A stretch of 64,000 nt of DNA from Eukaryota sp. TZLM1-RC (lineage: Eukaryota; Protista; Metamonada: BaSk clade). The position numbers and the translations under genes were made by a program. Below are positions 2,235-63,888 of this stretch, one piece after another. Position 1 is the first letter of the stretch. Each line of letters opens with the position of its first letter. Location: NCBI GenBank assembly GCA_040285825.1, contig JAUPSS010000007.1, positions 143,156-207,155 on the forward strand, in the 5' to 3' direction. The notes beneath the pieces are model-generated. The model searched no databases. It saw nothing but the letters and a program-made list of their open reading frames with translations, and was not told the origin of the DNA.

Positions 2235-2429
2235 TGAAAATATTTATTTCCATCTCTGTCTCACACAGAAACTTTTTTGACAGATCGTGAACCAGCATTG
2301 GCGACTGCAATCGGGACAATTTTTCCATCTGCCAAACATCGACTTTGTCTCTGGCATATCAACAAAAATGTTGAAACTCAATTGAGAAGGTACGTACGTG
2401 ATAACTCGTTGGAAAAGAAGGCACTCAAA

Positions 2430-3425
2430 CGGGCGTCTAGCGAGCAAATTTCCAGTGTTTCCAATGCTTTTGTTGTTTGGAGCGGGGGCTGCTTTTTGGC
2501 AGGATGGGCAGCTTTCAACGTGGTGCTTTAGGTCTTCTAGCATGTTGGGCCACCAAAAGTCACTGTGTTTTAATCTTTTCAGTGAATCTTTCTTGGACGG
2601 CTGTCCGGCACTTGGCAGTCCGTGACTGTGGTTAAGAATTTCTTTCCTGGAGGATTTGGGTGTGATAATTTTGTTTTCGGCGTTGAATAGTAAATTTAGT
2701 TTCTCATTTGATCTTAGCTCGTTTCTGGCTCTCAGTTCATCTGCGATTCTTCTGAATTCGTCATCTTCTTCGTCTTTCTGGGCTTTGACAAACTTAGATA
2801 ACCAATTTTCTTCATCATTATAGTTGGCTTTTAGGTTCTTCACTTCTTGTACCAATCCGGGATGGGATAGGTGGCATAGTAATGACCAGTAGTTTCTTTG
2901 ATGTTTCGGGGTATAATCGTTTTAGGGTCAGGCACTTCTTCGGACGGTCTAGCTTCTTCGTCGTGAGAGCTTTTCTCTTCTTCAGCTTCTCGGGTTCTTC
3001 TAAGAATTTCTTCGTTGTCAAAAGCGGTTCTTGGTCTTAAACTTTTGTATCATCGGAGTGTCTTCTTCTACCATACTTGTCTTTCTGAAACTTTCAATGT
3101 TTTTTAATACCGAGTCTAAGGTTAATCTACCAGGTCGCCTGGGGCAATCAGCGTCAACCAACCCTCTAGACGACGCATCGAGTGGAGAACTAATTCTCCT
3201 CAGCGAAGACGGCCTTTTTACGGTAGGGAAAGGAGCTTTCCTCTGGAAAGATTTCTTGGAAACGGGTTTTAAAACTTTTAGAGTTTCTTCAGGTTTTTTG
3301 ATATCCGTTGGCACTAATCGTGATAATAAGTCGGCGAAAGCGTTTTCTTTACCATCTACATGGTGAATTTCTTGATCAAATGAGGCTAGCAGGGGAATCC
3401 ATCTTTTTACGATTCTATTGTTTTC
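2430..3425 (-). mobile_element. Ty3/gypsy pol fragment: RNase H end, long linker, integrase zinc-binding domain
   Basis: RWIPLLASFDQEIHHVDGKENAFADLLSR at ~3320-3405, then ILNHSHGLPSAG..FWWPNMLEDLKHHVESCPSCQK at ~2495-2640. The RH-then-IN order is gypsy-type. Confidence 0.85.
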
Positions 3426-3429
3426 AGGT

Positions 3430-4020
3430 GCTGCGTCCAGCTACCTGTATTAAAGGTTGACAAAACTGACTTCCTTCAATTGATCCACCAAATGCAATGA
3501 AAGGACGCTTGAAAGAGTTGTTAGGTTCTTTTTCCAACACACAGCTGGTTCCAGGGTTGATGTCCTCAAATCTCCAGTTTTAGAGAAACCTTGTGTCTTG
3601 CAACATCAACAAGAGCGTCGGCGTACTTACGGAGTGTCTTGGAATTGATAGGCTTCATTTTGCCATAACACCGAGTCAGTTCAGAATCAACGAATGAGAA
3701 TGGTTTAAGTTCAGTCATTACCCAGTCCATCCAAGCATAGATATTCTTGGCTTTATTTTCTTGAAAGTAGTTCGTAATGGATTTGTTGCTTTGAGACAGT
3801 AGTTGAGACGTTAAAGTATGGAAATCTGGAAGCGCAGTTCTGATGTGGGAAAGCAAGTTGGAAAATCCAGCACCTTTTTCCAAACGCCTAGTAGTAGAAC
3901 AGTTTGGCACTTGACACTCCCAGACCTTCAATGTTATTCCTCTAGGAGAAGAAGGAAGTTCTCCAAACACGGGTTGTTCACGTTTAAAGAGTGTAGTGGC
4001 TACCACTTTGTTTGAAACTG
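3430..4020 (-). pseudogene. hAT-like transposase N-terminal fragment with BED-type zinc finger
   Basis: WECQVPNCSTTRRLEKGAGFSNLLSHI, followed by NIYAWMDWVMTELKPFSFVDSELTR. Confidence 0.7.
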
Positions 4021-4194
4021 TATGGATTGTCGGAAATCAGTGCTTGTCCAAATCCTCCCTCTGACCTTCCTAAACGAAAACCACAGCGAAAGCGCTTACA
4101 CGATCTTTCTCCACTACTCGCCTACTAAGAAATTATGTGATGGCAATCTTGTTCAACTTTTTTCATAGTCAGCAAAAATTGAAGTGGATCACAG

Positions 4195-6742: not shown

Positions 6743-6829
6743 TGTTGGCGCCCAAAGGCCCAAAGGCTTATATAATATGATTAGAAAATAAATCAGACTT
6801 CTCTTTACTGCAATAGACTTTAGGCAACA
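6743..6829 (+). mobile_element. 5' LTR (87 bp) of an LTR retrotransposon
   Basis: TGTTG...CAACA termini and an internal TATATAA. Homologous to 21558-21636 and to the solo copy at 53807-53915. Confidence 0.8.
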
Positions 6830-6919
6830 ATAATTATTGGCCATTTTAAAGTCAAAGGGTATACCATAACTTCAGCACTTTACTAGTAAACATCCCCAGA
6901 AACCAGAAACCTTTACAGC

Positions 6920-7540
6920 ATGTCAGACATCTTTCAGCAAGATATCTTTGACCCCAATTCCTCACCTAACATGCAGCAACAGGAACCAGAAACACATACA
7001 CATATACATAATATAGAGAGTAACGAGGCAACGGACCGGGATCCCACCTCCCCCTCCCTTAAAGTAGAAGATGAAAGAGTGGACAAGGTCCCTCCATCTT
7101 CAGCAATGGAAGAGGCAACGAGAACGGACCCGGCTCCCTCTCCCCTCAAGTATACAGAATTGTCCTGGGAGGCAACGAGAACGGACCCGTATCCCTCTCC
7201 CCTCCCAATTATAGAACCTGTCTTAAAGGGAACGGATGGAAATCCCACCTTAGACACGTCTTCCCCACTAGGAAAGTCTGAAGAAATTCAATCTCAATTA
7301 GATGAGATGGAAGGAGAAGACGACTCCAGTGATGGATTCTACAAACTCTTAACAAGGACGCGGAGCCTTACCTCGAATCAATGGACTTATCTCCATTCGA
7401 GAAGCTCCCTCCTTTATGGAACCAAACACACAAAAAGTCGACTACATACGAGGTTACGAGTAAAGATTCCACCTCCACTGTTATTGTACTACAATGCAAA
7501 GATACGGTTCTTGCTCCTCTGATATTTTTAGTCGTAAAGC
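6920..7540 (+). pseudogene. gag-like ORF remnant downstream of the short LTR, with EATRTDPxPSPL repeats
   Basis: Starts 90 bp after the LTR, and the same start (MSDIFQ) follows the LTR at 21558. Three proline-rich repeats lie at ~7025-7205. After a frameshift a DLSPFE motif is shared with 21160. Confidence 0.6.
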
Positions 7541-7839
7541 CAGTACATTAACAACAGAAGACGCCGCCTTAAGGTTTCTGAGGTTTGTTACTTTGCTTAC
7601 TGTTGTTCTTGATCCAACATAGACCCTGCATGAATACTAGCGAATCCATTCTTCGATTCCATGATTCCTTTACTAAACGACACTACCACGTTACTCGTTT
7701 ACGAAAAAGGGAAGAAGCAGAGCGTCTTCATGTAGCGATTAAAACATACACAACAATGTGTTTAAAGTATTCAAAGTATTCAATGTTTGGTCAGCATCCG
7801 TAGTACTACAAATACCTGTTCACCCAAAAATAAAGATAA

Positions 7840-8405
7840 TGTTGCCAAATTTTGATATACTGTAAAAACCCAAATACAATCAAGTGTTAGAATCCCTCAG
7901 AATTCCATTGAATTCCAGTAATCTTTGGAGAAAATTAATGATTTGATTGAAGAAAAATCAAATTTGATTAAATAAGAAGTAGGTGTTGGTTTGAATTACT
8001 ATATCTTAGATTTATTTGATGAAGCAACAAAATTGCTTTTGATGTGACTGTTGTTGGAGGCAACAGCCATGATCCAAATGATGCATTCCATTTTGCCAAT
8101 AAAAAGAAAACACACAAATATCAGGTTTTAAAAGAAAGGAAATTGGTTTCTGAAATCATTCCGCTTGTTTTTTCAATTCATGGTGGAGTATTTGATAAAC
8201 AGCGGAATTATTGAAGAAATTAAATTAATCTTTTCTACTACCAATTATTAAGCGTGTAATTGGCAAAGGAAGTGTACGTTGTAGTGTGGGCAACGTACAT
8301 TCTGAACCCTGAACAAGTGAGAATGCAGAATTGGATCCAGGAAGGTTAATAGTATTGTGTCTTGTTAGTTTACTTTATCATAAGTAAGTTTTATTACAAT
8401 AAAAG
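7840..8405 (+). mobile_element. Non-LTR retrotransposon 3' remnant (RLE endonuclease, family F)
   Basis: KIAFDVTVVGG...KKKTHKYQ...IIPLVFSIHGG, followed by AATAAA near 8400. Paralogue at 21855. Confidence 0.7.
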
Positions 8406-8409
8406 CCAC

Positions 8410-8735
8410 TTCATAGACATTGGATGACACATTTTGTTCTAAGTGATGGAGATATTGATTATCATGATATTATAAGACAACTTCAGGTTTTTTTTGACAA
8501 AAATGGTTTAAATTTAAATGTTATGAAAACTAAAATCCATACAGTCGATAAAGATTTTATTTGTATGGGTACAGCTATCGGTTCTTCTGAATTTGAAAAT
8601 TTCAATTTTTTGGCTGATAAGATTGATTCAGAACTTATTCCAAAAACAAATTTATTAGCGAAACTACCACTTGAAAATCATTTTTCATTATTTGGTTATT
8701 GCAATAATTCAATTTTTTATGTACTGGGCACGTAA
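8410..8735 (+). mobile_element. Non-LTR RT C-terminal remnant
   Basis: LDD followed by GLNLNVMKTK and MGTAIGS. Similar to the RT tail at 11270-11520. Confidence 0.65.
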
Positions 8736-9429
8736 AGTTCAAGCATTTCATTCTATCGTTCCATTTACTCGTTGGAAGAATGAATTTTTTGAATAAATGT
8801 TTAAGTTTACCAAATGGTGATGATGTTTCATCGACATTCTTGTTGAAACACTGTGTCAGTTTCCAAGAAGCTCCAAGACCAATTGCAGGAAAGCGAGATT
8901 GATTCAATCATCATTCCTGCATTAAAATCGACTGATTCCAATAGAAAACCATCTATTTCACAAGCAGCACTACTCATTCCATTCAAAAACCCGTACAATA
9001 ATAGCGGTAGATGCGGGTGTGATTATCTGTGATGTGTATGTTTGTTTGATGATGTTTGGGTTTTACGCAAGGACTATCCACAAACACTCAGCACAGACAG
9101 AAATATGATAAGCTTTTCTCTAACAAAGAACGACCAATCTCAACCAGCTTCAGAAACGATATTCTACCAGAACCCAAATGATCCTGCCCATAAAGATCAG
9201 ATGAATTTATGAATGTCTCTGAAAAGTCCAGTCGATGACAACCATTTAAAGGAAATTGTCTCCAATATTTTCAGAACTAACAAATTAATTTAATGTAAAA
9301 TTTGTAATCTCTTTTGAATGTTTGGTCAGTTGTGTCAATCAATTAGATTCACAGAACAATTGAGTAATAAATCAAACTTAGTTAATAATTTTGGGCACTC
9401 CACATTCAAAGATCAATTAAATGAATTGG

Positions 9430-11530
9430 GATAAAGACTAAGCCTGGATCAAATAAGGGATGAGGAACGCCTAGTCGGGCTACTCGAAAAAACCAGGTAT
9501 TCAGTGGACTACCTCACCCGGATGGAGTTGATTGTCAGCCGATGACACAGTAAAGGAATGTTAAACAATGCCTTCGCTGATTATGAATTCATACGAAACC
9601 CTGCTTCATTAAGTGGGCCTGTCGCAGGTGGCTCGGATGATTCTTTTCTCTCAAACTATCCATTTTTCGTGTTCGATTATCCATCAGATAAATTGATGGA
9701 AAAAAATAGAAGTTTTGTTAAATATGAACAAAAGAAATGATGGATTACCATGATTTAGATTGCGGTGTATCTAATCACGTGATTTCTTCCAATCAACAAG
9801 ACAGCCTGCAACAAGAACCTTCAAAACTATCCCAAATTGGAAAAGATTCATCCTTGACCCCAATACAACGTAAGACCCAATATAACAAAATTAGAAAATC
9901 ATTGGGTTATTCAAATTCATTAAGAAACAGTCAGAGATTTCCGATTCCGGCCGAACATTCATCAAAGAGGAGTCGACGTAGGTTTGAACTGCCTCAGGAA
10001 CCCAGAGATTTTCAAAATCTTGTTGCACCTAAATCTTCTGTTTCAACTGTTAATGAATTTGAAAAAAATGATGTGATTCGGGGGAAAGAAGAAAAAGGTT
10101 AAAAAGAAACCTTTTATTGATGATCCTGTCCTTAATCAAAAAGTTAGTACCTCTAATCGCCCTCTTATTTGTTCAATTGATATTGAAACCAAGAAAATTG
10201 GTGTTGAAAAAACCAAGAAAAAAGATATTAATGAAGCTTTAGACAATTTGCGAGCTCAACAAAAGCAATCACAGTCAGATCGACGTCGCCATTTGACTGA
10301 TGATGAGCAATTGTTGGAACAACAGGTTTTTTTAGAACGGCAAAAAATTTTAATGATTTCTATGATTTTATTTGAAATTGACCACAACGGGGATACTATT
10401 TTCCATTCCTCGAGAATAAATTATGTTGCTAAATTAGAGGGAACGAGACGAGTATTATCATGGACCAATGATAACAAACCAGTTTTTGATGTCTCATTGA
10501 ATAGATTTGATCATGAACAAGATCTATTGAAGTCATTTGCAGAATTCACTTATGATAAACAATTGTTGGTTTCTTAGGCCATAATATTTTTAATTTTGAT
10601 TTACCTGTGTTGGCTGTGCGATTATCACATTTTGGAATCGCTTTTCCAATTTTTTCCCAAAGAATTGGTCTAAATGAATTATATCTTCATCGACGTTGGA
10701 GAGAAGTAATTCAGTTTTATGAAAATTTCACTATTTTGGACAATTTTTTGTTTGCCAGAAAATTCATTAAAATTAGATATGGAGCTTCATTGAACAATTG
10801 ACCATTTACTTGCTGAAACAAAACTTAAACTTCATGATGAGTTTAAAAATTTATTACCTATTGATAGCCTCTATTCAAAGAAGGCCTTGAGAACATTAGG
10901 ATCTTATTGTCTTCAGGATGCAATTCTTGTTTTCAAATTATTTATTCTATTCCAAAGGGATAAAATAATGGTGATAAAGCCATTTTCCAATCTTTAAGTG
11001 AACATCCTGAATTGAATTTTTTGGTTCGTTTTTTCAGGTTGTCATATAGAGAAGAGTCATTGTGGTTAGTTCCTGGTTACAATTATCCTCTCATCTCATC
11101 AACAGGTATAAAGCAAGGAGATCCTGCGTCTCCTTTCTTTAGCAACATTGCCTGTGTAATCCTATTACCATGAAGTATTGAATAATGAAACATATGCCTA
11201 CCTGGACGAAGCTTACTTGTGTTTAAACAATGCTTCTGATCTTTCAGTTGAGTTTTCAAAAATTAATCTCACTTTGAACAAAAAAAGACCAAATTTTTTC
11301 GATGTGGTGACCCAGTTTTCGTGATAATGACTTTAAAACAATGGTTTTAAAGCCATGGTTCTTTTATCGGTAGTATTGCTGGACAAGAACCTCTATTAAA
11401 CGATTATGTTGAAACCAAAGTATTACCTTTGCTTGATCATCTCCATGGTTTGCCCCTGTAAACAAAGATATTATTCATTCGTTATTGCATCAACAGCAAA
11501 GTACTGTATTTTTTACCTTCTGTGGCCTTC
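9430..11530 (+). mobile_element. Decayed non-LTR retrotransposon: GC-richer leader, disordered N-terminus, PolB-type 3'-5' exonuclease, RT motifs
   Basis: One frameshifted reading path runs from 9558 to ~11520. The exonuclease motifs are at 10179-10919. RT motifs GIKQGDPASP (11105-11134) and YAYLDE (11193-11210) follow, then GSFIGS and RYCINSK. Confidence 0.7.
10158..10945 (+). pseudogene. DEDDy 3'-5' exonuclease domain of the family-B DNA polymerase type (two frameshifts)
   Basis: ExoI RPLICSIDIET (D at 10179), KILMIS and FDHEQDLLKSF; ExoII LGHNIFNFDLPVLAVR (10574-10621) and LDNFLFARKFIKIRYGASLN; ExoIII LGSYCLQDAILVFKL (YCLQD 10905-10919). Confidence 0.85.
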
Positions 11531-11894
11531 CCCCTTTCCTCATTAACTTTAGGATGAGTGAGTAACACTCAAACACTCCATATCCTTAGTGTCATGATTC
11601 TTGGAGGCAAAAAGGTAGACATCACGATATCTTTTCAAAACATCATTGTTGAACGTATGGAGATACACCGACATCAAGCACACTCGTCGGCTAAATTGAA
11701 GATCATTCAAAAATGAGATTATGGAATAATGCTTAAATTACAAGTAGAGTATCAATCCACACCATTAATGGACCAAGTTGCTAGAATAGAAAACTTAAAA
11801 AATAAAAAATAATTAAAATAATAGGAAAACAAAGAATTCAAAACCAAAGAATTCAAAAGACTTTACAAATCACTTGGCTTTGAGTTAGAAACCT

Positions 11895-12070: not shown

Positions 12071-13704
12071 ACATCTGCAAATATGTGACAATGACAAAAA
12101 CTAAGTCAATGATCAGTAAACGAAATCCTAAAATTATGTAAACTCATAACAATTGAAAGATGACAAGGAACTTAAACTTAAGAGGCTTGGGTTGGTAACA
12201 AAAACTGCTGGGTATAGACAATTCAGAATTAATTAAAGCAATAAAAACAACGCGAACAGCAAAGTTAACAAAAATAAATGTACAGTAATCAATCAAAAGA
12301 AACAAAACACAATTAATTAGGAAAAATCAAGAAACCTGAAAACCATACATATACTTATTTACCAAAGACCTCATTTAGATTAAAATAAATATAAAAATAA
12401 ACGACAGAAATATAATCTAAATAGGCAAATCTTAGGCAACAAAAATATTTTAAAAGAACAAGTAAAACAACTAGAATGGTAATGAAAATTTTTCCAAATT
12501 AAAGTAGCTATTTGTGGTGGTCTTAACAATAGTCTACTTTCACTATAAGTAATCATGACCAATTATAAAATAAATAACAAACTCAGTTAAATAATACTAG
12601 AGCAAAATAAAAAAAATAAAAAAAAATAAAAAAATTCAGTAACGGCAAAGCACTTGGGACTAAATGATTTCATATTGGTGCTCAAGTGATACTTATGAAC
12701 AATATGATTCGAATCAACAATAACTGAAAATTCGAGTCAAAATACCAATAAAGCATGTGAACCAAACAAATGGTGTCATGTAGGGGTTTGAATCTCGGGT
12801 GTGAGCTCAAAACCAACAGTCGAGCGTTCGATTCCCAGTGAAGGCGAAAAATAAAAATGATTTGATAAGCAAAAAAATGTAGAAAGTGAGTGCGAGAAGG
12901 GTGCGAAAGGAGTGCGAGAGGAGAGAAACTGTTAGACAAACAAGCAAGTCAAAGTGATAGGAATGTGACTCAAGTGGTAAAACATTGAATCGATCCACTA
13001 GAAGGAAATCTAGGTGGAAACAAGTGAGATTAGTAGTCAGTGCAGAGAAGTGAGAGAGAGCAAAGTCATCAAGAGAGAAGGAAAGAAAAACAATGCATCG
13101 AGTAATGTGAAGCATGTAACGTAGAGTAAAGTAAAGGATTGTATGAATGATGAAGGGTGGTTTGAACACTGTAGCAGTCAAAGTTAATACGGTACATGAT
13201 AATATATGTCTACATTGATGTTGACAACAGTGAAAACAAAAGTTTTTGAATTCCACATGTTCCTATGTTAACTCTTTGATCATCGATGATGATTGAACAG
13301 AATGAAACGTAGAGATTCGGTATCTGATAGTCATGTAGAAACTCTGAAGATGCCAGAAGACAGTAGTGTTTGAAAACCAAACGTGCCAGTGTCAAATGGT
13401 AAGTAGTTTTAAGAAAAAATATGCCATCAGGTCTTGAAGAGGTGTTTGTTAAAGCCAAGGAAGAAATAGAGCAGCAGGGGTGGAATGGATATATGGAGAA
13501 CTTATGTAAGAACACATCCGATCCGAAAATCAAGCGTTTTTCACTGATTTTATGGCGCTCTTGTTGTTGTTGTTGAACTTAAATTGAATTAGTAGGTTTC
13601 TTTGTATTTTGACTGATGACGTGATACTCGTTCATGAATCAGTTTTATTAATAAACTTAGATTTCTCTTTCTCCTTCGTGTGTTCATCTGCCTAACGGCA
13701 TCAC

Positions 13705-16809: not shown

Positions 16810-18511
16810 TTTGTTTAGTTCAAAAAATGAGTAAGCAAAAGAAGTTTACCACATCAACTTGTTGAATGATTAGCAAAATTGTTTGGCCATAGAAAACAAC
16901 GAAAACACATGTTTAAAAGCAAAGTTGCGAACCATCTTACGAACTCCGGAGGTGTCAAAGGTTGTTCTTCTCCCCCACCAGACCTGGTTTCTAGTATATC
17001 TACTTCTAAAGCCAAAAAACTGGAAAATAACATCAGACAGCTCGAAACTGAGGCTCTACACCTACTTACTTCTCCTCCATCTACACCTCTTCCTTTGTTT
17101 TCTCTCGAATCCCTTGAAGGTAAACGCCGTAGTACTGACATTTCCTCACAGTGTCACGATCAACTTTCGACAAATGGCAATGATGTTGAAGTTCTTGGGG
17201 TACTGGAACCAGCTAAGAAAATCCGTCGACAATTGAGTTTGAAAGAAAGCTTTAGTCCAAGTTACAAGAAAGAAGCTGACCTGGCGATACTTAAGTTCTT
17301 TCTCAAATTTAAAGTGCCTTTCTATGCAGCATCTTCAAATGAATACAAGACTATGGTTCAAGCAATCAATGTTGTGGAAAAAGATTATAAACCCCCTTCC
17401 ACCAAAAGACTTTCTGGATCAATGATAGATGAGTATCATTCATCAATTATAGACAATTTATCGGTAATTGTTGATATGTTCGATCATACAGGAGTTAGCC
17501 TTGTTTCTGATGGATGGAGCGATCGTCAATCACGTCCTTTGATAAACCTACTTGCAGTAACTCCTACTGGTTCTATGTTTTTAACAGCCTTCGACACATC
17601 CGGAGGTGAAAACAATTCTGAATTTATTGCTGAAATAATTTCCAAATATTTGCAACATCAAAATGACAAAATCTCTATCAAAGTTGACTCAGTTATTCAA
17701 ATTGTCACGGACAACGCCCCAAGTTGTGTTGCAGCAGGAAAGATACTAGAAAAATCCATTCCATTGTTCTTTACCGGATGTGCTGCACACTCAATTGATT
17801 GAATCCTGTTTGCGTTTTCCAAACTGGATTTCATTAAAGCAATTATAACCGATTCAGTTAGAAACGGTCATTTTGTTATGAACCATCAAATTGTGAAGCA
17901 CATACTGTTGAAAAAGGCCAATCTTCTTCTTGTCAAGCCCGGAGAAACAAGATTCGCTACGAATTACTTGGTTTTAGAGCGTCTTTTGCACTTAAAAAGC
18001 CAAATGAAGGAAACTGTCATCGATAGAAGATTCGATAAATGGATCACAAAACAGAAACCAAAAACGAAACAAAAGGCTGCAGCTGTTACCAACATAATAC
18101 TGAATGATGACTACGGTTACTGGGAACAGATGAATCAAATTGTAGAGCTTTTTCAACCAATTTATGGTGTCTTGCGGTTAGTAGACTCCGACCGTCCCGT
18201 ACTGTCAAAGGTTTATCCTGAAATGCAAAAACTAGAAAAATTGGTAAATGGTTTGGCTGAAACCCATAGTTTGTGGACTAGGGACAGAGTTCAATCACTG
18301 ACGAATCTTCTCCAACTTCGATTCTCAAAAATGTTTAATGACTTACACTATGTTGGTTATATGTAATATATGTTATTGGTTATATGTAATTTCTTTTACT
18401 GTTAAATAGAACAACGCACCCTGCACCCGCACCACACCACTTTCTTCACGCACTGAGGGTACGGGGTGCGCACCCAGCACGAACCCGTGCACCCCGCACC
18501 GCCGAACACTG
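16810..18511 (+). mobile_element. hAT transposon (DUF659-type transposase pseudogene) with preserved right terminus
   Basis: Motifs SLVSDGWSD, QIVTDNA, TGCAAHSID, KPGETRFATNY and LRLVDSD. GC-rich GCACC subterminal repeats at 18415-18505 end in ...GAACACTG (CAGTGTT- TIR) at 18511. Confidence 0.9.
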
Positions 18512-21557: not shown

Positions 21558-21845
21558 TGTTGGCGCCCTAAGGCTTATATCATATGATCAGAAAATAAAT
21601 CAGACCTTCTTCAACCACATAAGACTTTAGGCAACAATAATTATTGGCCATTTTAAAGTCAAGCTATACCATTAATAACTTCAGCATTCACACAGCAACA
21701 GCCAATTAGATATCCTTTAGTATGTCAGACATCTTTCAGAAAAACTCTGACTCCACCCATTCACCCAACATGTAACACCAGGATACACAACAACCACATA
21801 CAAAATGAAGGTTGACGAGGAAACGGACCCGCATCCACCTCCCCT
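21558..21845 (+). mobile_element. Short LTR (21558-21636, 79 bp) plus leader and truncated gag start
   Basis: TGTTGGCGCCC...AGGCAACA, then ATAATTATTGGCCATTTTAAAGTCAA identical to 6830 onward, then ATGTCAGACATCTTTCAG. Confidence 0.8.
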
Positions 21846-21854
21846 AAAATAAAT

Positions 21855-22220
21855 AATTAAAATTGCTTTTGATGTCACCATAGTTGGAGGATATGGTAAT
21901 AATTGGACTGATGCTTTTTCGAAAGCTTATTCTGATAAGATTGCAAAGTATTCAATTTTAAAAGAATTAAATTTAATTAACCAAATTGTTCCTCTCGTTT
22001 TTAGTGTTCATGGGGGTTTTTACACTAAAACAAAAATACTATTTGACCAATTTGGATGGAATGAGGTAGCAGATGAAATTAGTTGTATAATTTTGAAGAA
22101 TAGCTTTAAATGTCACAGTGCTTTTAATTATATACTTCAAAAGAAAAGAGAAGATCGTCAATGTTGGTAGGTAGTTGTTTTTTAGTATTCAAGTAGTTTC
22201 TTCTTAATTTTCAATAAAAG
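21855..22220 (+). mobile_element. Non-LTR family F 3' remnant (RLE)
   Basis: KIAFDVTIVGG...DKIAKYS...IVPLVFSVHGG, then a stop and AATAAA at ~22213. Confidence 0.75.
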
Positions 22221-22229
22221 TCGTTCAGG

Positions 22230-22880
22230 AAAGAAGAAACTTTATATGTATTTCAGTATTCGAAGAGCCGTGAATACTGTAAGGAAGGAAACATAATCCT
22301 TGTTTTCGGATAGCAAGAACCTAATGGAAATGGAATTTTAAGTGACTATGTGGATGCTAAAATAGAACTAGGATGGAAAGAGGCTTCAAGACAACATGTT
22401 CGTGCTTACTTATAATTTGGAGCCAGAGCAAAGAGTTTAGGTTAATTACTAATTGAAACAACCTTATGAAAAGCCTACTGTGAAATCGTATAGGGGAGAA
22501 ACTGGTACAGGAAAAACTAGAGCTGCCTATGAACATGAACGTCCTTGTGTGCTGTCTAAACCTGCTCAAAAATTACGGTTTGACAGCTATGATCCATTGG
22601 AAAACAGTACTGTTATTCTGGATCACTTCCGTAAGGATTGGTGTTCCTTACATTTCTTATTGCAGCTATTGAACAGATATCCCATTTCTGTACCAATTAA
22701 GGGTGGTATGGTAGCTTGGAGACCAAAGACTATGCTAATCACGTGTCCTTGGCGATTTGATGATGGAAAGATGGATGGAAAGAATGAAAATACTTGGACT
22801 GATGAAGGTGATGTTGATGCTCATGAATGTATTCAACAATTAGAAAGACGAATCGATGAAGTCCGTTACTTTGATCCACT
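22230..22880 (+). pseudogene. rep: Endogenous CRESS-DNA virus Rep (HUH motif III + SF3 helicase)
   Basis: EYCKEGN at 22272, Walker A GETGTGKT, Walker B-like VILDHF, LLQLLNRYPISVPIKGG, PKTMLIT and Arg finger QLERRI. Stops and a frameshift lie upstream of 22453. Confidence 0.88.
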
Positions 22881-23204
22881 CAGGATCAGCATGCTCAGGA
22901 TGCTGCTAACATTGCAACTGTTTGTTCATCCCATTCTTTCTCTCACATTAGCAGCCTATTTGCCCTCCCTCGCCTTCTCGTCCCGGAGTATCTCCTGTTG
23001 CAGATTGGTCTGATGCCGAAGTTGCTCTCTCCGAATTCTGTTCGTCCCAGTCTCTAGGTGAACAAACCGGTGGTGTTTCTCTGTGCTCTGAACACAACAG
23101 AGACAGATAACCAGCAGCGCTTAAACCATCTCCTTAAGCACAAGGACGATGAGTATCTTGATTTAAATGACCCTAACCAACCTACTGAAACTATATAGCG
23201 TGAT

Positions 23205-23660: not shown

Positions 23661-26600
23661 TTTTATACATGGTTGCTGGAAGGAATGAAACGCTCTTGGA
23701 GCTAATTAGATGATCGCTCAGAAAAATTGATTTAAATTATGATCTGTGTTCAATATGTTTTTGGAGGTGCAGTTGTTAATTTGTAGGTTGTTACAATAAA
23801 TAGGTGAAAGAATTGAAACAAATAAAAATGAAGAAAAAATCAAAAGTCCAAAAACATGTAGACTATACAGACACACGTAATCAGATCTTTCTTGACCGTA
23901 ATCAACCTCAAACAATTAAAAACTGAATGATTGATGACTGCTCAGTCGTTTATGTATTTATGAATAGAGACTCTAAATAAAGAGAATTGCTCTCAATATT
24001 TGGTAGAGACTCTTGAAATAATCAATAGAGTGACCAAATCGATCGGTTCAACAAAGTTTGGTAATGAATGAAACAACTAATTACTGAATTGAATTTTTAA
24101 TGTACCTCCTCATAAATAAAAACACTTATTCTAAAAGAAAGAGAAAACATTCTCAGTTCCAAACAGAAGATTCTCAGTAGTAGAGGGCTATGCAACCAGG
24201 TTAAAGAAATCGACAGCAATTACCAGTTATAATACCACTTAAACTCTGGCGACACAGCTCAAATAAGAGGTATGAAATTGTAAGTAAGGTATAAAATAGT
24301 AAATAACAAAGATGTCCTGATCACCATCCTCAAAAAACACTTGAATATGTGATTATGGAATAGGATATAAAAGAGAAGAAATTAGTAGTTGTAATGAGCA
24401 AATTAGAATTCATTAGAAACAATGTTGAATGAAAAGTTGACTTTACATCTTGATCGTCATACTGAATGAATGAATTCAAAATGGTTTTCGACGTTTCCTT
24501 CCAATACAACACACACATACATAAACGGTCAACAATAGTCAACGAAACGCTCAAATAAATCAATTGAATGTCTGATTATTGCTGGAAATTTTGACTCAGT
24601 AAAAACCAAATGATAAATAGGCTAATTGATCAAAAAATGATTTTTCAAGGACCCATCCAAAGTGAATTGACATTTTACCTTTTTTTTCTTTCATTTCATT
24701 TCCATGAAAGCACCGATAGAATCTAATCTTTGTAATTCTTCAAGAAAACAATGCAATTGTGAAGTGCATGGCAAGTGTTGCAAATGGTGAGTTTACTGAA
24801 TATAGAACCCCATTGAGTTCGCTAAGAAAAGAAAGGTCAAATGCCCTTTGGAAGAATGCAAGGAGTGAGGTAGAAAACAAGTCTCTAATGTGTGGTTATA
24901 AATCAGTTTTGATTAGGGGTCAGGAGTTCAAATCTCTTTGGGAAAGGAAAATTATGATAAATGAAAAGCAACAGTGCATGATTGTGAAATGATGCACTGG
25001 CACGTTATCATTATGGATGACTAGCAAGGATGACGTGAAACTTAACAATGATGACGTGGCACTTACTCTTAGATATCAACGCCAATGATCAAGCAAGTGT
25101 GGCACGTTGCACGACTAGATCAGCCTTGAGATGCATCTTGGTATATCTAACAAATAGAGTAAAGAAACAAACCCTAAACCCGGTCGATGGGAACCCTCTA
25201 CTATGCCATACCATGAGACAGTGGGGTTTGAAGAAGGTGTGTAAAGTAAAGAGGAAAGTGTAATCGAACGGGGTTTTTGAATGGTAACAATGGTGTGAAT
25301 ACGGAATGCTCAGGTGTGTTGCTTGTGGAAGCTATTGTTGATGGTAAGAGTATAACATTGTGAGAAGGGAAAGGTGGTGAGGAGTTCTTCTCCTCTTAAT
25401 GAAGGGTTGCTCATTGACTGACCATCCCGTAAATGTAGATTGCTGCTCTTCAGATGTGAGAAATGTAAGAATCTCCTCAATCAATTTCCTCCTCATAAAT
25501 GATCAACTCAAACACTGTATTTTCTGGGAATATTCAAAACATCAAGTATTCATGTGTGTAATTGGTGTGTTTAAAGATATCATAGTATCAACAATTGAAT
25601 GTATTGCAACAAGCTGACTTGAAATTGAACAAGAAAATAGAAAAATATAAAAAAAATTTAACTACTACAAGTACCACAAGTAGAGGCAAAAGCTTGCAGC
25701 AGCACACAATGTTTTTAACTAAAAGAAATCAAAGCAAAACAAAAAAAACAACACATTGACATCAACCATTCAAAATCAAATAAAGATACTCAAACAAAAG
25801 ATTCTTTTTAGTGTTTTTAACTAAGAAATACCTATTCATGTGCAGTGAATGGTTCTACTGATTTGTTTGGACTTTGGGATATTCTTTAAAAGGTCATTCA
25901 CATTGACTGTCTCTATAGCGTCTCAATCAGTCTCTAAATGCTCACAGTTGTCGCCAAATTGCATGTCATGTATTGAATCCCAATATCCACCAATTTTGTG
26001 GGGGTTGTCAATAACGCTAATGTCAGCAGAGTTTGGATTGGAAATGGTTATTGTTGAGGGATCGTCGGAAAGAAAAGGATACTTCCTAATCATATTGGAA
26101 TGAAAAAGATGTAGATGTTACATGGTCTGTACCAACTCCCCTGACTATGAAAGATCCATTTTCGATGGAACTGATTTTGGCAGCATTTGCAAGTTGTGAC
26201 TTGACCTCGAGTATTAAAATTCAACCAGAACATTGTCCAGGAGATAGCTGCTGTGCTTGAATCATATTGTAAAGTCATGAGTATTCATTTTCCTATCAAC
26301 AAAGTGGAAACAAAAAAAATGAATGGACAAAAATGAAGAAATGAAGTTCTGTCAAATGAAGATCTGGTTGTTAATCACTTAATTATATTTAATCAGAACT
26401 AATGGGCCCCAGTCCAATCAACCAAGATTTCCTTTACAAAAGCTTTATCTACTTGTTTTCTTGCCATTACTTCCCTTATTGCATGAAACAACCGGGGTAC
26501 TATTTGATTTATTGCAAATTGAATCTCTTGTTGTCTTGCGAGGTGTAGCATCTACAGGTTCAGCATCGAAACCGTTGACGAGGTAATCAAAAGGCAAGGA

Positions 26601-32049: not shown

Positions 32050-33965
32050 TGGTAATAATTTTTGATACTTATAAGATAGATACCGCTAAGATTAAAAGAT
32101 ATTCAAATTACAGTAAGACAACTCTATTTTTCCATTTCAATAGTGGAATTGCCGAATGTCGGCCAAAATTGTTCGACTTGATTTTGGTTTCTGTTGTAGT
32201 TGTGAAACCAATGGAGAATGTTGTAATAAGAAAGTATTTCTAGATCTGATTCCATTGAACTATGCGCAATTTTATGTTTGTTAAAAGCAAATGATTTTGT
32301 ACAAGTTGAAGACCTTATCTTGCAAAGTTATCGTTACAGCCCTAACCTTATTATTCATCTTTTTAAACAAACACTCTGTAGCAATAAGGTTCAATACGAG
32401 GGCGTTGAAATTGGATCCACATAATGAACCCCCAAACTATTTGTATGCATTTTTGAACAAGATATGTTCCTTCAAACAACACGATAAAGACAGGAAACAA
32501 TCTATGTGCTTTCTTATGTAAATAAAGTTGTATTAGAAATCGGTTGATATATGCCGGAATTAATGCCGTATTTTTAATCAACATATAGCACATAATCTAA
32601 TTTACATTTTGGTAATTGCATTTTGAGTTCATCAAGTGGTGTAAGGAGATCCGTAAGGACCTCTTTTGTTTTGTTTGGCCATTGATCCAATTTGATTGCA
32701 AATTCAAGAGATGTTTCCTTCGCTAATTATGATTGCATATATGGATGATGTTGTGCTTATTGGTGATTTAAATATTGTGAAACAAGCAGCTGTATGTTTT
32801 AAAGAATTTTTTACCAAAATTGGTCTCCGACTTAATTTACTTTAATGTGTTTTGTTATCGAATTCTCCAGTTTCCACAATAGTTGATGGTATTGAAATTC
32901 AAGCCAAATTATATTTAATTGATGCTATTTGTCATTTGGGTCGTTTTTAGGAAATAATGATGAAATTACCAAAAAATGGTTTGAAAGGTTGAAGTCAATT
33001 TCTGACAAAATTGACCGAATGATGAATTTAGATATACAACAACACATCAAATTTAATATTATAAGACTGTGTTTTAGTTCCAACTTCAATTATATATATT
33101 TCGATCTACAAATCCTCTCGTCACTAGAACTTTGGCTCAGAAGTTTAATGAGTTACGTGCAAAAGTTCTGTCTCAATTACTGGGATGTAAAGTGTTCCAA
33201 ATTCCAGACCATGTTTATGTTAGTCCACATTATGGCGGTTTAGGGTGGACGAAGGCTTCTATTCTTACCTCGTGTACTTTTGATCGATGCAGAAATGCAA
33301 TCTTTGAGTTTTCCGAAAGATTTTCAGATTGGAAAGATATATTGATGACAACGCAAAGTTCCACTATTTTTGCATTAAATGAGGAATTTTCAAAAATTGA
33401 TGTAGAAAAATGGAGTCAATGCTTTCCACAATCATTCAATGGCAATATTCCAGAAAAAAATGTTTTAAATTTGAAGTACACTCTTGGAACACTACAGAAA
33501 GGATTGACTGGAATGTATGAAAATGATCTTTATAATAATAAATGCAGCTCGGCTGTTTCAAATCATCACAGAAGAAAACTTAATCCTGTGAGTGCTCTTG
33601 ATTGAAAAACAAAAGAAAAACATAGAAAATATGATAAAGATGTTGAAGAGGCTAATGCTGATAGAAATACACAGCTAGTTTTTATTACTTTCCCATTTTC
33701 GATAAATGGAAGATTATCAGATGGAGCAGAAAAAACAATGAGAATCAGGTTCAAGAAAAAACAATGAGAAGATTTGATATTTTTTGAGGGCGTGCACGAA
33801 TTCAATTTGCCATTATTAATAGATTATCTCAACTTTTTCAATCGAATAAGAGAAGCTTTTGCTAGACAGCAAGCAGATCAAGATTTTGTAGAGAAAACCT
33901 TGGTTCAATGATAGTCGTCCCATTAGTTATGAGTTAATGTAATTAAGTGTTCAAGTTCAATAAAT
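32050..33965 (+). mobile_element. Non-LTR family D, longer decayed copy (RT + RLE end)
   Basis: SSSGVR.GDP.GPLLFCLAI, AYMDDVVLIG (YMDD 32738-32749), GLRLN and YGGLGW, then the family D 3' end finishing TTCAATAAATAAAA. Confidence 0.85.
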
Positions 33966-45390: not shown

Positions 45391-45809
45391 TAAGATCAGC
45401 AATAAATTAGTTTATAAAGCTGGTGACATTAATTCGGAGCTTTCCAAATTAATGTGAGTGACATAAATGTCGGTACACATTGTAGTTAAACAGTTGAACA
45501 GAGGCATCTGCTTAGGATTCAGTTTTCTTTGTTGAACCCAAAAGTCTTCTGCAGCAACAACAGACAAAATAAAAAACAATTCAACGCTATTAATCCAATC
45601 ACAGTGATCACAGCCAAAAAACGACGGTACTTTGTCAGATGAGTTTTTAATTAATAAGAAATATTAGGATCAAAATTATTCCTATGTTTTCAAAACCAAT
45701 TCCAACTGACGAAGTAACGTTACACCTCATTTCTCAGACAAAAATTATTCAATTCTTGTCAAATTCAAGTCAAATTGCCATACAACCAAAAACAATATTC
45801 TCAAAAGTC

Positions 45810-46450
45810 TGAGTTAAATTGTAAACATTTTATATCTTTCAGAAGCGAGGTTCATGATGCTGTAAGAGACCATTTATATTGTATGTGTAAATCTCATAGA
45901 GTTGAATCCTTCTTGGAACCTCTGTTGTCAAATCTGTTTGATGCTGAAGATGATTTTCATAAGAATAACAGAGGTGATGTTATATTACTTGGATTAGATG
46001 GAACCTTCATTTTAATGGATTTAATTTCTGTTGATCCTTGTAATGCCTAAAATGAAAGGCTAGTTAATTCTGAAATTCATAATCCTCTTTCAAATGCTGA
46101 AAATTTCAAATTCAAAAAATACAATGAACCTTTGTCCAAATTGGCCAGTCTACAGCATGCAAAATACAATTTGTATCCATTTGTATTTTCCCTTTTTGGT
46201 TCACTTGCACCAACTGCTTTATGTTGTTTGGAAGATTTTGAAATGATTGTAAAAAGAATAACTGGCAGAAATTTCAACAGATTGTTTTGGCAAAATAGAA
46301 TTGTGTTTTCTATTTTTAAGGGGATGTTGAAGATGGTTTCTGATGCTTTGCTTTCTCTTGGATCTCACTATGAAAGAGTTTAATCTAGTGTTTTTGTTTT
46401 GGGAGAGATGGATTTTTTAGATGTTGATTTATAGGTTTTGAATAAAATTC
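45810..46450 (+). mobile_element. Non-LTR family A 3' remnant (RLE)
   Basis: HDAVRD..RGDVILLGLDG..SVDPCNA..YPFVFSLFG..FWQNRIVF. Near-identical to 57454-58077. Confidence 0.9.
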
Positions 46451-47129
46451 AAATTTTGGTCAAAAAAAACTCTGAGTGCAATAACAAACATTGAATGATT
46501 TATTAGACGATGATTCTCAACATTAACTCAATCAATTTTTTTTGGGTTTTCCTATCTATTTCTTCCTACAGCGGGAAGGTGTAGCAAAAATATGATGTTA
46601 AACGGCTTTCATGAGTTTCTGTCAACCAGTGCTTTTGTTACTATGAAATCCTGAAAAACGATTCATTGTGCCAAAGCTACGGTTCAATGTTTTGACTGCT
46701 GTATTATTGGTTGAACATTTGAACGCTGCAACAGCTTGATACCAAAGATTCAACAGTTTATAAACAACGTGAATCAACTTAGCCTTCCAATGACTCAATA
46801 TCCAAGATGCAAATTGGAATGTTTATGTTAGAAAAAACTCCCCTTATTGCAATCACCACTACATTACCTAGAGATTGTTGCTATCAAACAATTTTATTTT
46901 TTGTCATTCCAGGACGCAAATCGAATCAAAGATCATTGGGTAGTTGTTGGTAAAGTGACATTGGATCACCTCAAAATGTTCGGGTTGTATGCAGTGTCAA
47001 CAATTGCAAAGAAGAATTGGTCTAAATCAATGATGGTCATGGTATTGGTAATCTCACGTGCCATAATGAGGGTGTAATTTGATATACATGTGTTGAGGTG
47101 AATTTGAAAAAGGGATAAATATAAAATCC

Positions 47130-47790
47130 ACCTAGTTCTGAAACTGTTAAGCAAAATCCACCTTTTGGAAACGTGCCTCAAATTCAGAATGAATTGCAAG
47201 TTATTTTGGAAAAAATGAAAGTTGAACTTGATTCAATTTCTTCTTTAGATATAGAAAAACATATTGAATTTTTCATGCTTAAAATTTGCTACACCGGAAG
47301 AATAACCCACATTTTGAGATTTTGTGCTCCTTCCATAGCATTAGATTTTTGTCGTTCATTTAATTCATTGAGAACAGAATTTTTTGCTGCTTTAGTGGAT
47401 GTAGAACCAGGAATGTTGAAAAGTCACTTATTTTCTTCAGCAAATTTGGGTGGTATTGGATTTACTAAATCATCAATTTTGTGTCAATCAGCATTCTTGC
47501 GTGGTGGCAAAAAATTTTATTTATGAATTTTCTCGTAGATTTCCTGATGATTCTCATCTGTTAGTTCCCAACTACAGTCCTTATTTGTATGAGTTATCTT
47601 GTAAACTTGAAAAATTGCCACCACAAATTTGGACCAAATGTTTTCCTCAATCAATTCAGGAAATTCCAAACCGATCTCTTTTTTATTTACAGTTTTGCTG
47701 TAAACAGCTTCAGCAAAAATTGTCAAAGATTTTTGAAAGCTTGGATTTTGATTTTAGACTTGGCTTGGCCAAGAAAAAGATTTTCAGCCA
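47130..47790 (+). mobile_element. Non-LTR family A middle remnant (RT thumb region)
   Basis: LKICYTGRITHILR and NLGGIGFTKSS. The DNA matches 38610-39079 in reverse complement. Confidence 0.85.
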
Positions 47791-48239
47791 CAAGAATAAC
47801 TATAGTGCAATGCTGGGGAGATAAGGTCTGTATTGGGGGAATTTCGAATGTCTCTGATCTTAGCACATCATAATGTTAAATGTTTATAATTTTTGAATTT
47901 TGAATGCTGAAACTGATTGAAATACAGTAAATGCAACAGGGTTACATGAGAGTTTGACGTGCTATTAGAAAAAAAGCAATGTAAATCGGACATGGTAATT
48001 GGCCAACCAAGTCTTTGAGTTTTCATTCTGGTTGGAAAACGGTTTTTCTCAAAATACCAAAAGTGTAGTAAATACCAAAGAAGAGATTCCTTTTCCGTAT
48101 GTTTTTTTACCATTTATGATACTTTGAGTAACCAATATTAAATAATCAAAAACAGCGAAAGCTCCACATCATTAAAACCTATCTATTACACATCCAAACA
48201 GTTATTTAGTCAGACCAAAAGAGAAAAGTTAATCATGAA

Positions 48240-59900: not shown

Positions 59901-60499
59901 AACTTCAAAGCCGTTGATTTTCATCAATTTCACAATACCTCTTAATCATTGGGTCGTTGTATCAACATTTGCAACATTTCCTTCAAAATTCTTGTGCCTT
60001 TTCGATGAATGACTGAAACACACCAATCAATTCTATTTTTCACCCGTGGTTTGCTTACGTGTCTACATTGTTTATCCATTATTCGCAGCGGAATGTGCCT
60101 TTTGAACCATTTGGAACCATAAACTCGACAATTAATTTTATGGTATCTTACATCACATCAATTTCGAATTCATTTTTTTGTCTATTTTTTTTTGCAAAAA
60201 TAGTTTGTATTACGTTTTCGCTTCTATTGGCTATTTCCTTTCAAAGGTCATCAACGATTAAACCTCTTGTGGATCTTCCACAATTTGACGATGGTAGTTA
60301 AACTCACCACTTAGACCGGATTTTTAAGCAGCATCAACTCCACAGAACACAGAATTTAATAGTCATTTTTTTTCAAGAAAAACATTATCTTAATATGTTT
60401 TTCACATTGGTCATTTGTTCTGGAAAAACTGATTTTTATAAAATTCACATTTAAATAAGTGTTATATATTATAAATTTCCAATCAGATTTCCAATACAA

Positions 60500-61087
60500 C
60501 TATTTGTATTCGAATACTGGTTCAATTCAACCCACCAATTGATTTTGCTCAACATCACACATACTACGTCGATTCCTCATTTTCACTGGTCAAATGGTTT
60601 TCTAGAACGACAACATCGCGTCATTCTACAAAATCTCAAAAAGGTACTTTTAGATTTTGCTGACTATGACAATTGGTCCGATCATCTCCCTTTTTGCCAG
60701 ATGATTGCCAACAGCAGCTACAGAAGATCTCTTAATGCCTCTCCTTATGAACTCATTTCTGGTTCCGACGTATCACCTTTCTTGCTACCTATTAAGGTAA
60801 TGAAACCGACTAACCCAACTAAAAACGTCTATTCACCTAGTCAAACCCTGTCTGTCCTCCCTTCCCGATGAAATTCTGAATGCCTATGTTGCCGTTGACG
60901 CCGGTGAATTTCTTATAGACGTTATCCCAGATATCTCTGATAGCCAAGCAAACATTTTGTGGTCCGATGGTACTCAGTCAACTCAACCTGTAGATACTGT
61001 TAAAAATAGGGTAGCCTTCCAGTGATATTCACAGATGTTAAACCTCGATAAACCCAGAAGAAGAGGAAAAGAAGAAAGAAGAGGTAG
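60500..61087 (+). mobile_element. Ty3/gypsy 3' pol remnant: integrase core end, chromodomain-like tail, polypurine tract
   Basis: HWSNGFLERQHRVI...WSDHLPFCQMIANSS...SPYEL, then GEFLID...ILWSDGTQSTQPVDTVKN. The purine run AGAAGAAGAGGAAAAGAAGAAAGAAGAGG lies just before 61088. Confidence 0.85.
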
Positions 61088-61420: not shown

Positions 61421-62130
61421 TACACCGCCGGAGGTAATAGTCTCATTGCAAAATTGGTCTCACTGAGACTAATTATGTCCTGACATCATCAGAAAATCCA
61501 TTTCTGAGACTAATTTTGTCTTGAGAAACAAATGGGTGATACTTTTTGAGCACACATTATGAATAAAATCTCCTGTTTGTGTCTGGGGTTTGCTTTTCTG
61601 TTGCATAAATGTAAATTGACATTTCACACACTCTCAACACCTGTCCTTTCTCCCCATGCCTTATAAATACGACTTCCTTCTTCTGGGCAGAAACCTTCGT
61701 TCTTGGAAAACCCATGCATCTGATGATACAAAAACACGTGCATTATATACGTGTCTTTTTTTGGGGGAATCCCAGACCGCAATAGCACACTTCTTCATTT
61801 GCAACCAGTCTACAATTAGTCGCTGGGTACAAGAATACTTTGAGTTTTTCTGTCAACCTAAAAACTATGATGAAACACAGCCAAACAATATCCAATCTAA
61901 CATTCCCTCCAAAATTGTCGACTTTATCATTGTTACGACCACGGAGACCTGCTTTTGTTTCTCAATGAAATTAAGTCTCTAATCTACTCCAACTTTCATA
62001 CTACTATTTCAGTTTCGACTGTTCACCAAATTCTTGTTCAATCTGGCTTTTCGCGAAAGCGAGTTCAGTTATCTGTACAAAGAGCAAAACTACAGATGGT
62101 GTTAAACTTTGAGAATTACTTAGCCCGGAA
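61421..62130 (+). mobile_element. IS630/Tc1-like element 5' part: subterminal repeats and HTH/winged-helix transposase N-terminus
   Basis: CTGAGACTAATT(A/T)TGTC occurs twice (~61463, ~61504). Encodes SQTAIAHFFICNQSTISRWVQ and FLNEIK...ISVSTVHQILVQSGFSRKRV. Confidence 0.75.
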
Positions 62131-62139
62131 TATATGTGT

Positions 62140-62540
62140 CATTAACTCATCCCTGCCCTCGACCCAAGAAGCACCTCCACAAAGCCTTACTGTGGACACT
62201 GACTCTTCTGAACTCCTGTATCCCCCTCAAGTTGTAGAACCGATTGCAGGAAATAAATGTAGAGTACAGCAGGTGTCAACTAATACTACACGAAAACTGG
62301 TGCTGCAATTGATGGAAAACTGGATTTTTGAAAACGAATACGAAGGAGGACTGATGTCTGCTACAACTAAAGCGTTTCCGGAACACTTTCTAGCCTCTGA
62401 ATCCGACAATTGCAAGAAGGTTTCTGACTGGTGGTCTATTTGTCAAGCCTTTTACCCAAGTATAGAAGATAAAAAGCTTTCAAATTCTCGAGTACAGAAC
62501 GGAGTGAAAAAGAAGGTATTTCTAAATGGTCATTCGAGCA
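62140..62540 (+). pseudogene. N-terminal fragment of a pogo/DDE_1-like transposase
   Basis: RKLVLQLM...SATTKAFPEHF...NCKKVSDWW...SRVQNGVKKKVFL, recalled as the same family as 44960-45390. Confidence 0.4.
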
Positions 62541-63888
62541 ACTGAGTTCCAAAATTCTAGTAATGAAGCTACTATAACAAAAATGAAATATGATTCTTAT
62601 AAACTTATGGTTTTTCCGGTTTCAACTGATACACCTAGCTTTATATCAGTAGAGCTAAATTACTACGCTGTTTGTGGTGCCAGAAACTTTGGTGCTGGGA
62701 GAATGGGCCTACAGTTTGATGACTTATCCTGGGTCACTTCCGTAGCACTTTCTTGTCTCTTTCTAGACTGTGACATCAACACTGAAGCCTCAATTACTCC
62801 TATACGTCAACTCATCCACCCTGCGTCATCCCCTGAAGTTTCTTTCAAGAAGTCTGATATTTTCCGATCTCGAACTTCTACGACCATTCAGGGTGGGATT
62901 TCTGACTGAGTAGTAGTTAATCCAGAAATATTTTCTGTAAAGTTTAAACCACAGAGCGCCATATCTGCTCGTTTATATGAACATTGGATAAAAGACAAAG
63001 AACGCGAGGAAGTTCGTACCTTCACTCTTAAAGAACAGAAAAATCATCCCTCTAACAAGGAAATAGAGCTGACAGACAAGTACACAAAAATCTGGCTGAA
63101 TTTGCTTAACACCAACAAAGCCATAATCTCTGTGATTCCAGAAGAGCTTGTACCGTTTCTTGGGGACGTGATTGGAAACCCAATCAGAACCAAAATTGCG
63201 GAGCAGGTTGTACAATGTACCCCATCAAAGTTTTTAGAATAAGGAACGATGTCCTGGAATATTTGGATGTCTGTGACGCCAAATTGTTTCGGGAACTAGA
63301 ATGCTATGTTATGGGATTTAGTAAATGAAGAAGTGGCCAAGTATTAATGAGTGCTGATGTTGAACAATCGTTTCAAAGAGTTGAAGAAAATACACAACAC
63401 GATAAAAGTTTTTTTTGATTAAACAATAAAATAGGTAAATTGACTTTAAATAAACAAAAACATAATGAAAACTAATGTAAAAACTTGGGAACTCATAGAC
63501 CTTTTCTCCACAAAGATAGGGTGATCTGTATGGCTGTAAATGACGCCAGCCACTGTGTGCAAAATTATTTCGCAATTGAAAAACACTTCTGAAAGAATAG
63601 GGCTTTCCGACTGAAGTTACCAGACACAGCTTTTCTGAATCGATTTGCCAAAGGAATTCTTCCCATAGGTCTTCAACGTTCTCTTCTAGGGAGAATGCGA
63701 AATGATTTATTCGCTGATCTTCACCCCCTTCCTTCCTTGTCGAAACTACTACTGATGAGTTGTTGGACGGTTCCAGGGTTACTTCATGGACTCGTGGTTT
63801 CAAAACCTCAATTAGTGATGTGGAACATACGGCTGGCACTAAAGCCAGCCGGTCCTCTTGGTGCCCTCAAAGTTTAAAAAAATCAATC

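Follow-up and report, generated by a model that had tools for sequence, protein, structure and literature searches.

The window analyzed here, a 64,000-nt stretch of the genome of Eukaryota sp. TZLM1-RC, contains intact genes (presumably encoding a kinase and RCC1-like, B-box and TLDc-like proteins) interspersed with many decayed repeats. We take the segments at 367–2243, 2244–3440, 3566–4036, 16870–18366, 60455–60871 and 61620–62545 to be remnants of MULE, Gypsy-like LTR, hAT and Tc1-like transposases or integrases. On the + strand, a linker, a three-part exonuclease and a fragment of a non-LTR reverse transcriptase (RT) follow one another, with frame breaks near 10082, 10556–10574, 10798, 10964–10997, 11165 and 11285. 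The linker resembles part of P0001 (KAL0215417.1), a predicted protein of the same genome. The features are:

9773–10160, + strand: linker rich in Ser, Lys and Arg, likely disordered, with a basic KKKKVKKK stretch and one frameshift near 10082; 77% match to P0001 aa 144–266
10161–10574, + strand: exonuclease part 1, with Exo I (SIDIET), a charged insert of ~55 aa, strands and the helix HEQDLLKSF; rank 1 of 1434 with a giant-virus PolB profile
10559–10798, + strand: exonuclease part 2, with Exo II (GHNIFNFD, 10577–10600); PF03104 E = 0.021, phrog_403 E = 0.096
10794–10969, + strand: exonuclease part 3, with Exo III (YCLQD, 10905–10919) and its helix; matched by giant-virus PolB profiles
10964–10975, + strand: junction, with a frame change and RT subdomains 0–3 missing; read directly from the sequence
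10970–11554, + strand: decayed non-LTR RT spanning the last part of subdomain 3 through the first part of the thumb, truncated at both ends; 24.8 bits

The segment 10161–10945 is a predicted 3'-5' exonuclease of a family-B DNA polymerase (PolB) without its polymerase. Its three pieces are frameshifted, with the motifs in alternating frames, and the DEDDy set is complete: Exo I (DxE; D 10179 and E 10185), Exo II (NxxxFD) and Exo III (YxxxD) occur in order and supply four acidic residues and the tyrosine. An earlier note on this DNA had placed these motifs and those of the RT on the + strand (IDIET at 10176, GHNIFNFD at 10577, YCLQDA at 10905, GIKQG at 11105 and YLDE at 11199), and all of them lie there. 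Its further claim, that stitching across the frameshifts restores the three DEDDy motifs in PolB order, is borne out by profile searches. The three pieces took ranks 1, 2 and 3 among the 1434 fragments of the window with a profile of giant-virus PolB exonucleases (75 usable regions out of 120 loci, from an independent pattern scan of viral contigs), and again ranks 1–3 with a full-length PolB profile made from 23 of 45 giant-virus polymerases. Joined by X at the breaks, the exonuclease reading scored 21.4 bits, compared with 11.3 for the best of 300 shuffles that kept the Exo II motif. With the 75-region profile, the pieces ranked 1, 2 and 3 align at positions 38–161, 357–380 and 171–193, respectively, an arrangement colinear with the DNA.

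Single pieces score weakly (E = 0.01–0.5 with the 75-sequence profile), and Exo I itself lies outside the profile alignment and is identified by its DxE motif and spacing only. The distance from Exo I to Exo II is 133 aa here and 82–321 aa in 45 giant-virus PolB sequences. In Pfam, to which the earlier note had looked for both domains, the PF03104 match of the Exo II piece falls below the cut-off and the RT piece has no RT match. No Pfam or phrog match was found for exonuclease pieces other than that with Exo II, and searches of PDB by sequence and of NCBIfam returned no relative. Atlas assigned the Exo I piece to unnamed clusters (0.90) and to a DNApol_Exo cluster (0.83), a lead only, and the predicted structure of the first piece had a mean pLDDT of 40. 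Metagenome loci kept as matching the Exo II motif were mostly PolB genes of >640 aa (67 of 80), and none of the 80 combined it with an RT motif within one ORF; a profile from these loci, which had been chosen by the Exo II piece, is circular and picks up only that piece and the preceding helix.

Neither bacterial nor giant-virus full-length PolB profiles matched a polymerase domain anywhere in the window, and the motifs DxxSLYPS and YGDTDS are absent after the exonuclease, as the earlier note had said. Residues past Exo III depart from the PolB consensus. The order of Exo I–III and the E.DLL..F helix before Exo II are shared with PF03104 and with giant-virus and bacterial PolB, whereas the PolB N-terminal and polymerase domains are both missing here. 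The predicted exonuclease domain has been moved out of PolB, since a low-complexity linker, in frame in P0001, replaces the PolB N-terminal domain.

The exonuclease is a repeat family. The relatives found are three NCBI proteins only, P0001, P0002 and P0003 (KAL0223807.1), all from Eukaryota sp. TZLM1-RC, a Skoliomonas-type metamonad; their contigs measure 6.9 and 3.9 Mb, compared with 3.2 Mb for that of the window, so they represent other loci. P0001 holds the linker and Exo I in one reading frame, P0002 is 83% identical to the first exonuclease piece, and the exonuclease of P0003 is 60% identical to that of the window over 73 residues. No relative was found for Exo III in metagenome contigs, for Exo I in viral and prokaryote contigs or for P0001 in viral contigs, where Exo III gave one motif-only match. 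According to the available part of PMC11316075, repeats were masked before gene prediction in these genomes, which would make transposon proteins scarce in the databases.

Contigs from three runs were compared over positions 7600–11700 (22 and 40 records from two low-depth runs, none from the third); together these runs represent no more than a single sample, contain a small fraction of the sequence words and could be related to the organism of origin. These contigs cover 9807–10969 in several variants, some without the frameshifts of this copy. An X2 contig has one base fewer at 10082, a variant contig has one extra base at 10556, and an X1 contig tracks 10769–10969 with 2 differing letters and 5 extra bases. 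Another contig carries a 21-base insertion at 9984 that equals seven extra residues of P0001. Several variants cover the exonuclease and no contigs cover most of the RT piece, a gap that we do not count as evidence. The segments 7600–7766 and 9333–9546 are pieces of other repeats; the contigs matching them are numerous or deep and run into different sequence.

The first 143 residues of P0001 comprise the end of a Ulp1 protease and then GDVEANPGP (aa 95–103). The Ulp1 assignment comes from Atlas (0.95; 186 of 256 features; 25 of 30 hits to PF02902) and from Pfam (E = 0.01). With D(V/I)ExNPGP taken as the 2A ribosome-skipping motif, GDVEANPGP is a candidate 2A peptide directly after the Ulp1 domain in a protist protein. 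Residues 1–143, including Ulp1 and 2A, have no match in the window. Immediately ahead of the P0001 match, DCGV is read in frame at 9758; it was considered as a Ulp1 remnant and rejected, as the residues upstream of it do not match P0001. An N-terminal Ulp1 is described in NeSL and Utopia-1_TSP, elements with a restriction-like endonuclease (RLE), and an RNase H upstream of the RT in oomycete Utopia (PMC4640811). Transposon-borne 2A peptides have been reported mainly in non-LTR elements, among them Dualen elements with N-terminal Josephin (cysteine) proteases (10.64898/2026.06.17.732966). In the available portion of PMC3708506 the 2A-bearing elements are APE-type LINEs, not RLE-type, and that of PMC12338488 mentions no transposon context for 2A. 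Ulp1 and 2A in P0001 are the best new evidence that the host is a non-LTR element; their link to the exonuclease comes from one gene model, in which introns may intervene.

The RT piece opens with the last part of subdomain 3, at ~10970, in a frame different from that of the exonuclease, and contains QGDPASP, AYLDE, LTLNK, GSFIG and LFIRYCINSK, which we assign to subdomains from 3 to the thumb. With X at the breaks, it scored 24.8 bits with a profile made from four further RT remnants in the window; the best of 500 shuffles reached 7.3. Subdomains 4–7 and the thumb are present, as matched to window remnants linked to RLE ends, and subdomains 0–3 are absent; YxDD is not intact (the piece reads YLDE), and in-frame stops occur at 11348 and 11459. 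A non-LTR RT within ~60 bp of the exonuclease, lacking its early subdomains, is what the earlier note had described; the junction, which it had put at ~10950, lies rather at 10964–10975. The RT piece has no RT match in Pfam, NCBIfam or PDB and no relative in plasmids, and degenerate non-LTR RT patterns gave 0 and 3 matches in viral contigs, none of them an RT. No RLE-profile match was found on the + strand between 11554 and 16200, and the zinc knuckle and RLE are not in this copy. Disruptions number 4 in the 585 bp of the RT piece and 3 in the 1197 bp of linker and exonuclease, both small counts. A continuation of the thumb past 11554 was unsupported (2.7 bits, rank 21 of 505). A target-site duplication at 10961 and 11334 (a 23-nt imperfect repeat) was excluded, as RT homology extends past the repeat.

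Comparison with other RT remnants of the window gave 29% identity (45 of 154 aligned residues) to the one at 32.5–33.3 kb. The proposed likeness of the RT tail to the remnant at 8410–8735 exists but amounts to only 37% over 76 residues, and because of this the two are assigned to different families. The RLE remnant at 8023–8250 does adjoin the 8410–8735 remnant, but lies upstream of it and not downstream of the exonuclease and RT.

Further repeats were noted in the window. Those at 6758–8250 and 21565–22170 have a 5' end in common (6758–7053 versus 21565–21844; 74.5% over 302 bp) that passes directly into an RLE C-terminus without any RT, and are internally deleted, non-autonomous RLE elements. 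At 8023–8800, 45718–47820 and, on the minus strand, 39785–38600, an RLE 3' end is followed by a same-strand, 5'-truncated RT/thumb piece, an arrangement suggesting either that elements inserted downstream of older copies or that tandem arrays have decayed. The segment 11889–12790 (partial copy at 23830–24030) is a possible decayed PIF1-type helicase with GAQVILMNN at 12668–12724; it was the best of 3203 fragments, at E = 0.77 and after selection on that motif. A remnant of a Rep helicase with a P-loop, presumably CRESS-virus-like, lies at 22453–23013 (PF00910, E = 0.042).

An exonuclease followed by a same-strand non-LTR RT was found in two of the four copies with any context, and the other two gene models stop early. 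In P0003, the middle of the exonuclease is joined to a same-strand RT thumb that is 77% identical to window positions 33132–33497. This join is probably a predicted intron, as we infer from an out-of-frame run through Exo II. The RT of P0003 belongs to the family at 33 kb and is only 29% like the window RT, whereas the two exonucleases are 60% alike. Such values fit poorly with one co-evolving ORF unless domains were swapped, because in a single ORF the RT usually diverges less than the rest. A continuous exonuclease-RT frame was not found: the search from Exo I gave one match among 645 candidates, those from the RT start and from Exo II/III gave none among 14 and 217, respectively, and 1.84 billion representatives yielded two matches, both ending before or at Exo II. 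Nor does an exonuclease lie upstream of any of the seven other RT/thumb remnants of the window, all of which are 5'-truncated. These seven start abruptly beside unrelated DNA, and the start of the one at 32.5 kb almost coincides, in RT position, with that of the RT piece here. They total 4402 bp and were located by profiles built partly from the remnants themselves; on this basis, the chance that a random point of the window has a same-strand RT nearby is 3.9% for a distance of 60 bp, 14.6% for 2 kb and 31.6% for 5 kb. By these rates, the junction in the window favours one element roughly tenfold, and P0003 carries almost no weight either way.

Collectively, the exonuclease and the RT are real, and the locus is the inactive remains of one copy of a repeated element encoding a complete PolB exonuclease without a polymerase. 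The reading that explains it best, to which we give an even chance, is one internally deleted non-LTR element encoding a single protein in the order Ulp1, 2A, disordered linker, exonuclease, RT and RLE. A first deletion, beginning directly behind Exo III and reaching to where RT subdomain 3 ends, would have created the junction, and a second would have removed the RLE. Internal deletion is plausible because it is common here, as the copies at 6758–7053 and 21565–21844, joined to RLE ends without RT, illustrate. The Exo-RT-RLE family that the earlier note had proposed thus stands in part: the exonuclease is PolB-type, lacks a polymerase and belongs to a repeat family, and a retroelement host is favoured by the Ulp1 and 2A that P0001 has upstream and by the RT thumb that follows in P0003. 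On the other side, the searches gave no copy with one frame from exonuclease to RT, subdomains 0–3 and the RLE are absent here, the RT of P0003 comes from another family, and RT remnants with abrupt starts are common in the window.

A good possibility, clearly short of an even chance, is that two unrelated repeats abut and that Ulp1, 2A, linker and exonuclease belong to a DNA transposon or to a Helitron-like or virus-like element, whose own DNA ends the nuclease would process. A 5'-truncated non-LTR copy would then have been inserted behind Exo III, or a deletion would have brought an older RT remnant near. The abrupt, out-of-frame start of the RT fits this account, as do the seven other abrupt RT/thumb remnants, the different RT families beside the exonucleases of the window and P0003, the patchwork flanks (contigs matching 9333–9546 run into other sequence on both sides) and the DEDDy nucleases of Dada DNA transposons (PMC3706591). 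Against it, same-strand adjacency has a base rate of only ~4%, the 2A peptide suggests retroelements over DNA transposons, Pfam searches with 67 fragments from 6.6–13 kb gave no piece of a transposase, integrase or capsid, and the downstream PIF1-like motif is weak.

The exonuclease might instead be what is left of a whole PolB gene, from an endogenous giant virus, a Polinton-like element or a host duplicate, with the RT having taken the place of the polymerase half or the latter having been deleted. Its best scores are with giant-virus PolB, in which long charged inserts also separate Exo I from Exo II, and the Rep helicase remnant suggests that viral DNA has entered this genome. We nevertheless hold this origin to be very improbable: no polymerase domain was matched in the window, the low-complexity linker stands upstream both here and in P0001 in place of the PolB N-terminal domain, the residues after Exo III are off the PolB consensus, and no relative of Exo I or P0001 was found in viral contigs. 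Slimmer still is the chance that two repeats were joined at this point by misassembly. No contig among the longest pieces listed bridges it by 31 letters on both sides, but the window lies within a contig of megabase length, and contigs are identical to it at 8737–8915 and 10204–10470.

If a single deleted element is the right reading, ribosome skipping at 2A would release Ulp1 and leave a protein of linker, exonuclease, RT and RLE. The exonuclease would be tethered before the RT and near the primer end, in the position that APE or RNase H occupies in other non-LTR elements. There it could trim DNA 3' ends during target-primed reverse transcription, acting on a frayed or mispaired target primer, or remove untemplated bases from the cDNA end before second-strand priming. 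In true proofreading, the primer shuttles between two active sites, as in PolB. Should the fusion be real, the exonuclease may correct misincorporated cDNA bases, a proposal that we place only a little below even and beside which end trimming is as plausible. The fullest version of the idea, in which an RLE-type non-LTR family captured a PolB exonuclease before its RT and behind a 2A-released Ulp1, and so acquired a proofreading retroelement RT, we consider unlikely.

To our knowledge, retroelement RTs lack a proofreading domain. Known systems resemble the putative element in part. NeSL and Utopia-1_TSP share a single ORF with an N-terminal Ulp1-like protease, and oomycete Utopia a nuclease (RNase H) upstream of the RT, but the available text of PMC4640811 mentions no DEDDy exonuclease ('exonuclease' has 0 occurrences), and here Ulp1 is present only in the gene model of a relative. 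Dualen/RandI and the APE-type LINEs with 2A have the order cysteine protease, 2A, nuclease and RT (PMC3708506; 10.64898/2026.06.17.732966); their APE endonuclease and Josephin or OTU protease contrast with the PolB-type exonuclease and Ulp1 found here. Element-borne DEDDy 3'-5' exonucleases, with a proposed role in 3'-end processing, occur in bdelloid Juno/Vesta LTR elements and Athena Terminons (PMC5408684) and in Dada (PMC3706591), and those of the LTR and Athena elements are also described in PMC5718144 and PMC6338049. Those nucleases are RNase D-like and lie in a separate ORF3 or within the transposase, whereas the one here is PolB-type and upstream of a non-LTR RT. The E. coli PrimPol-RT PPRT/DRT7 is a natural RT-like protein with 3'-5' proofreading activity; it differs in being bacterial, in having that activity in the RT-like domain and in proofreading PrimPol products, and the available part of PMC12439943 names no DEDDy domain. 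PolB fusions in Polinton-like viruses involve helicases, with no RT mentioned in the available part of PMC12721341. In searches of the open-access literature, we found no report of an exonuclease in RLE non-LTR elements.

If true, such a natural fusion would make it possible to test directly whether, and why, fidelity or DNA-end trimming benefits a retrotransposon, and may offer a scaffold for a more accurate RT and for R2-type insertion tools. Even if two unrelated repeats abut at the junction, a repeated element with Ulp1, 2A and a PolB exonuclease cut from its polymerase would be an architecture of which our searches of the open-access literature gave no example.
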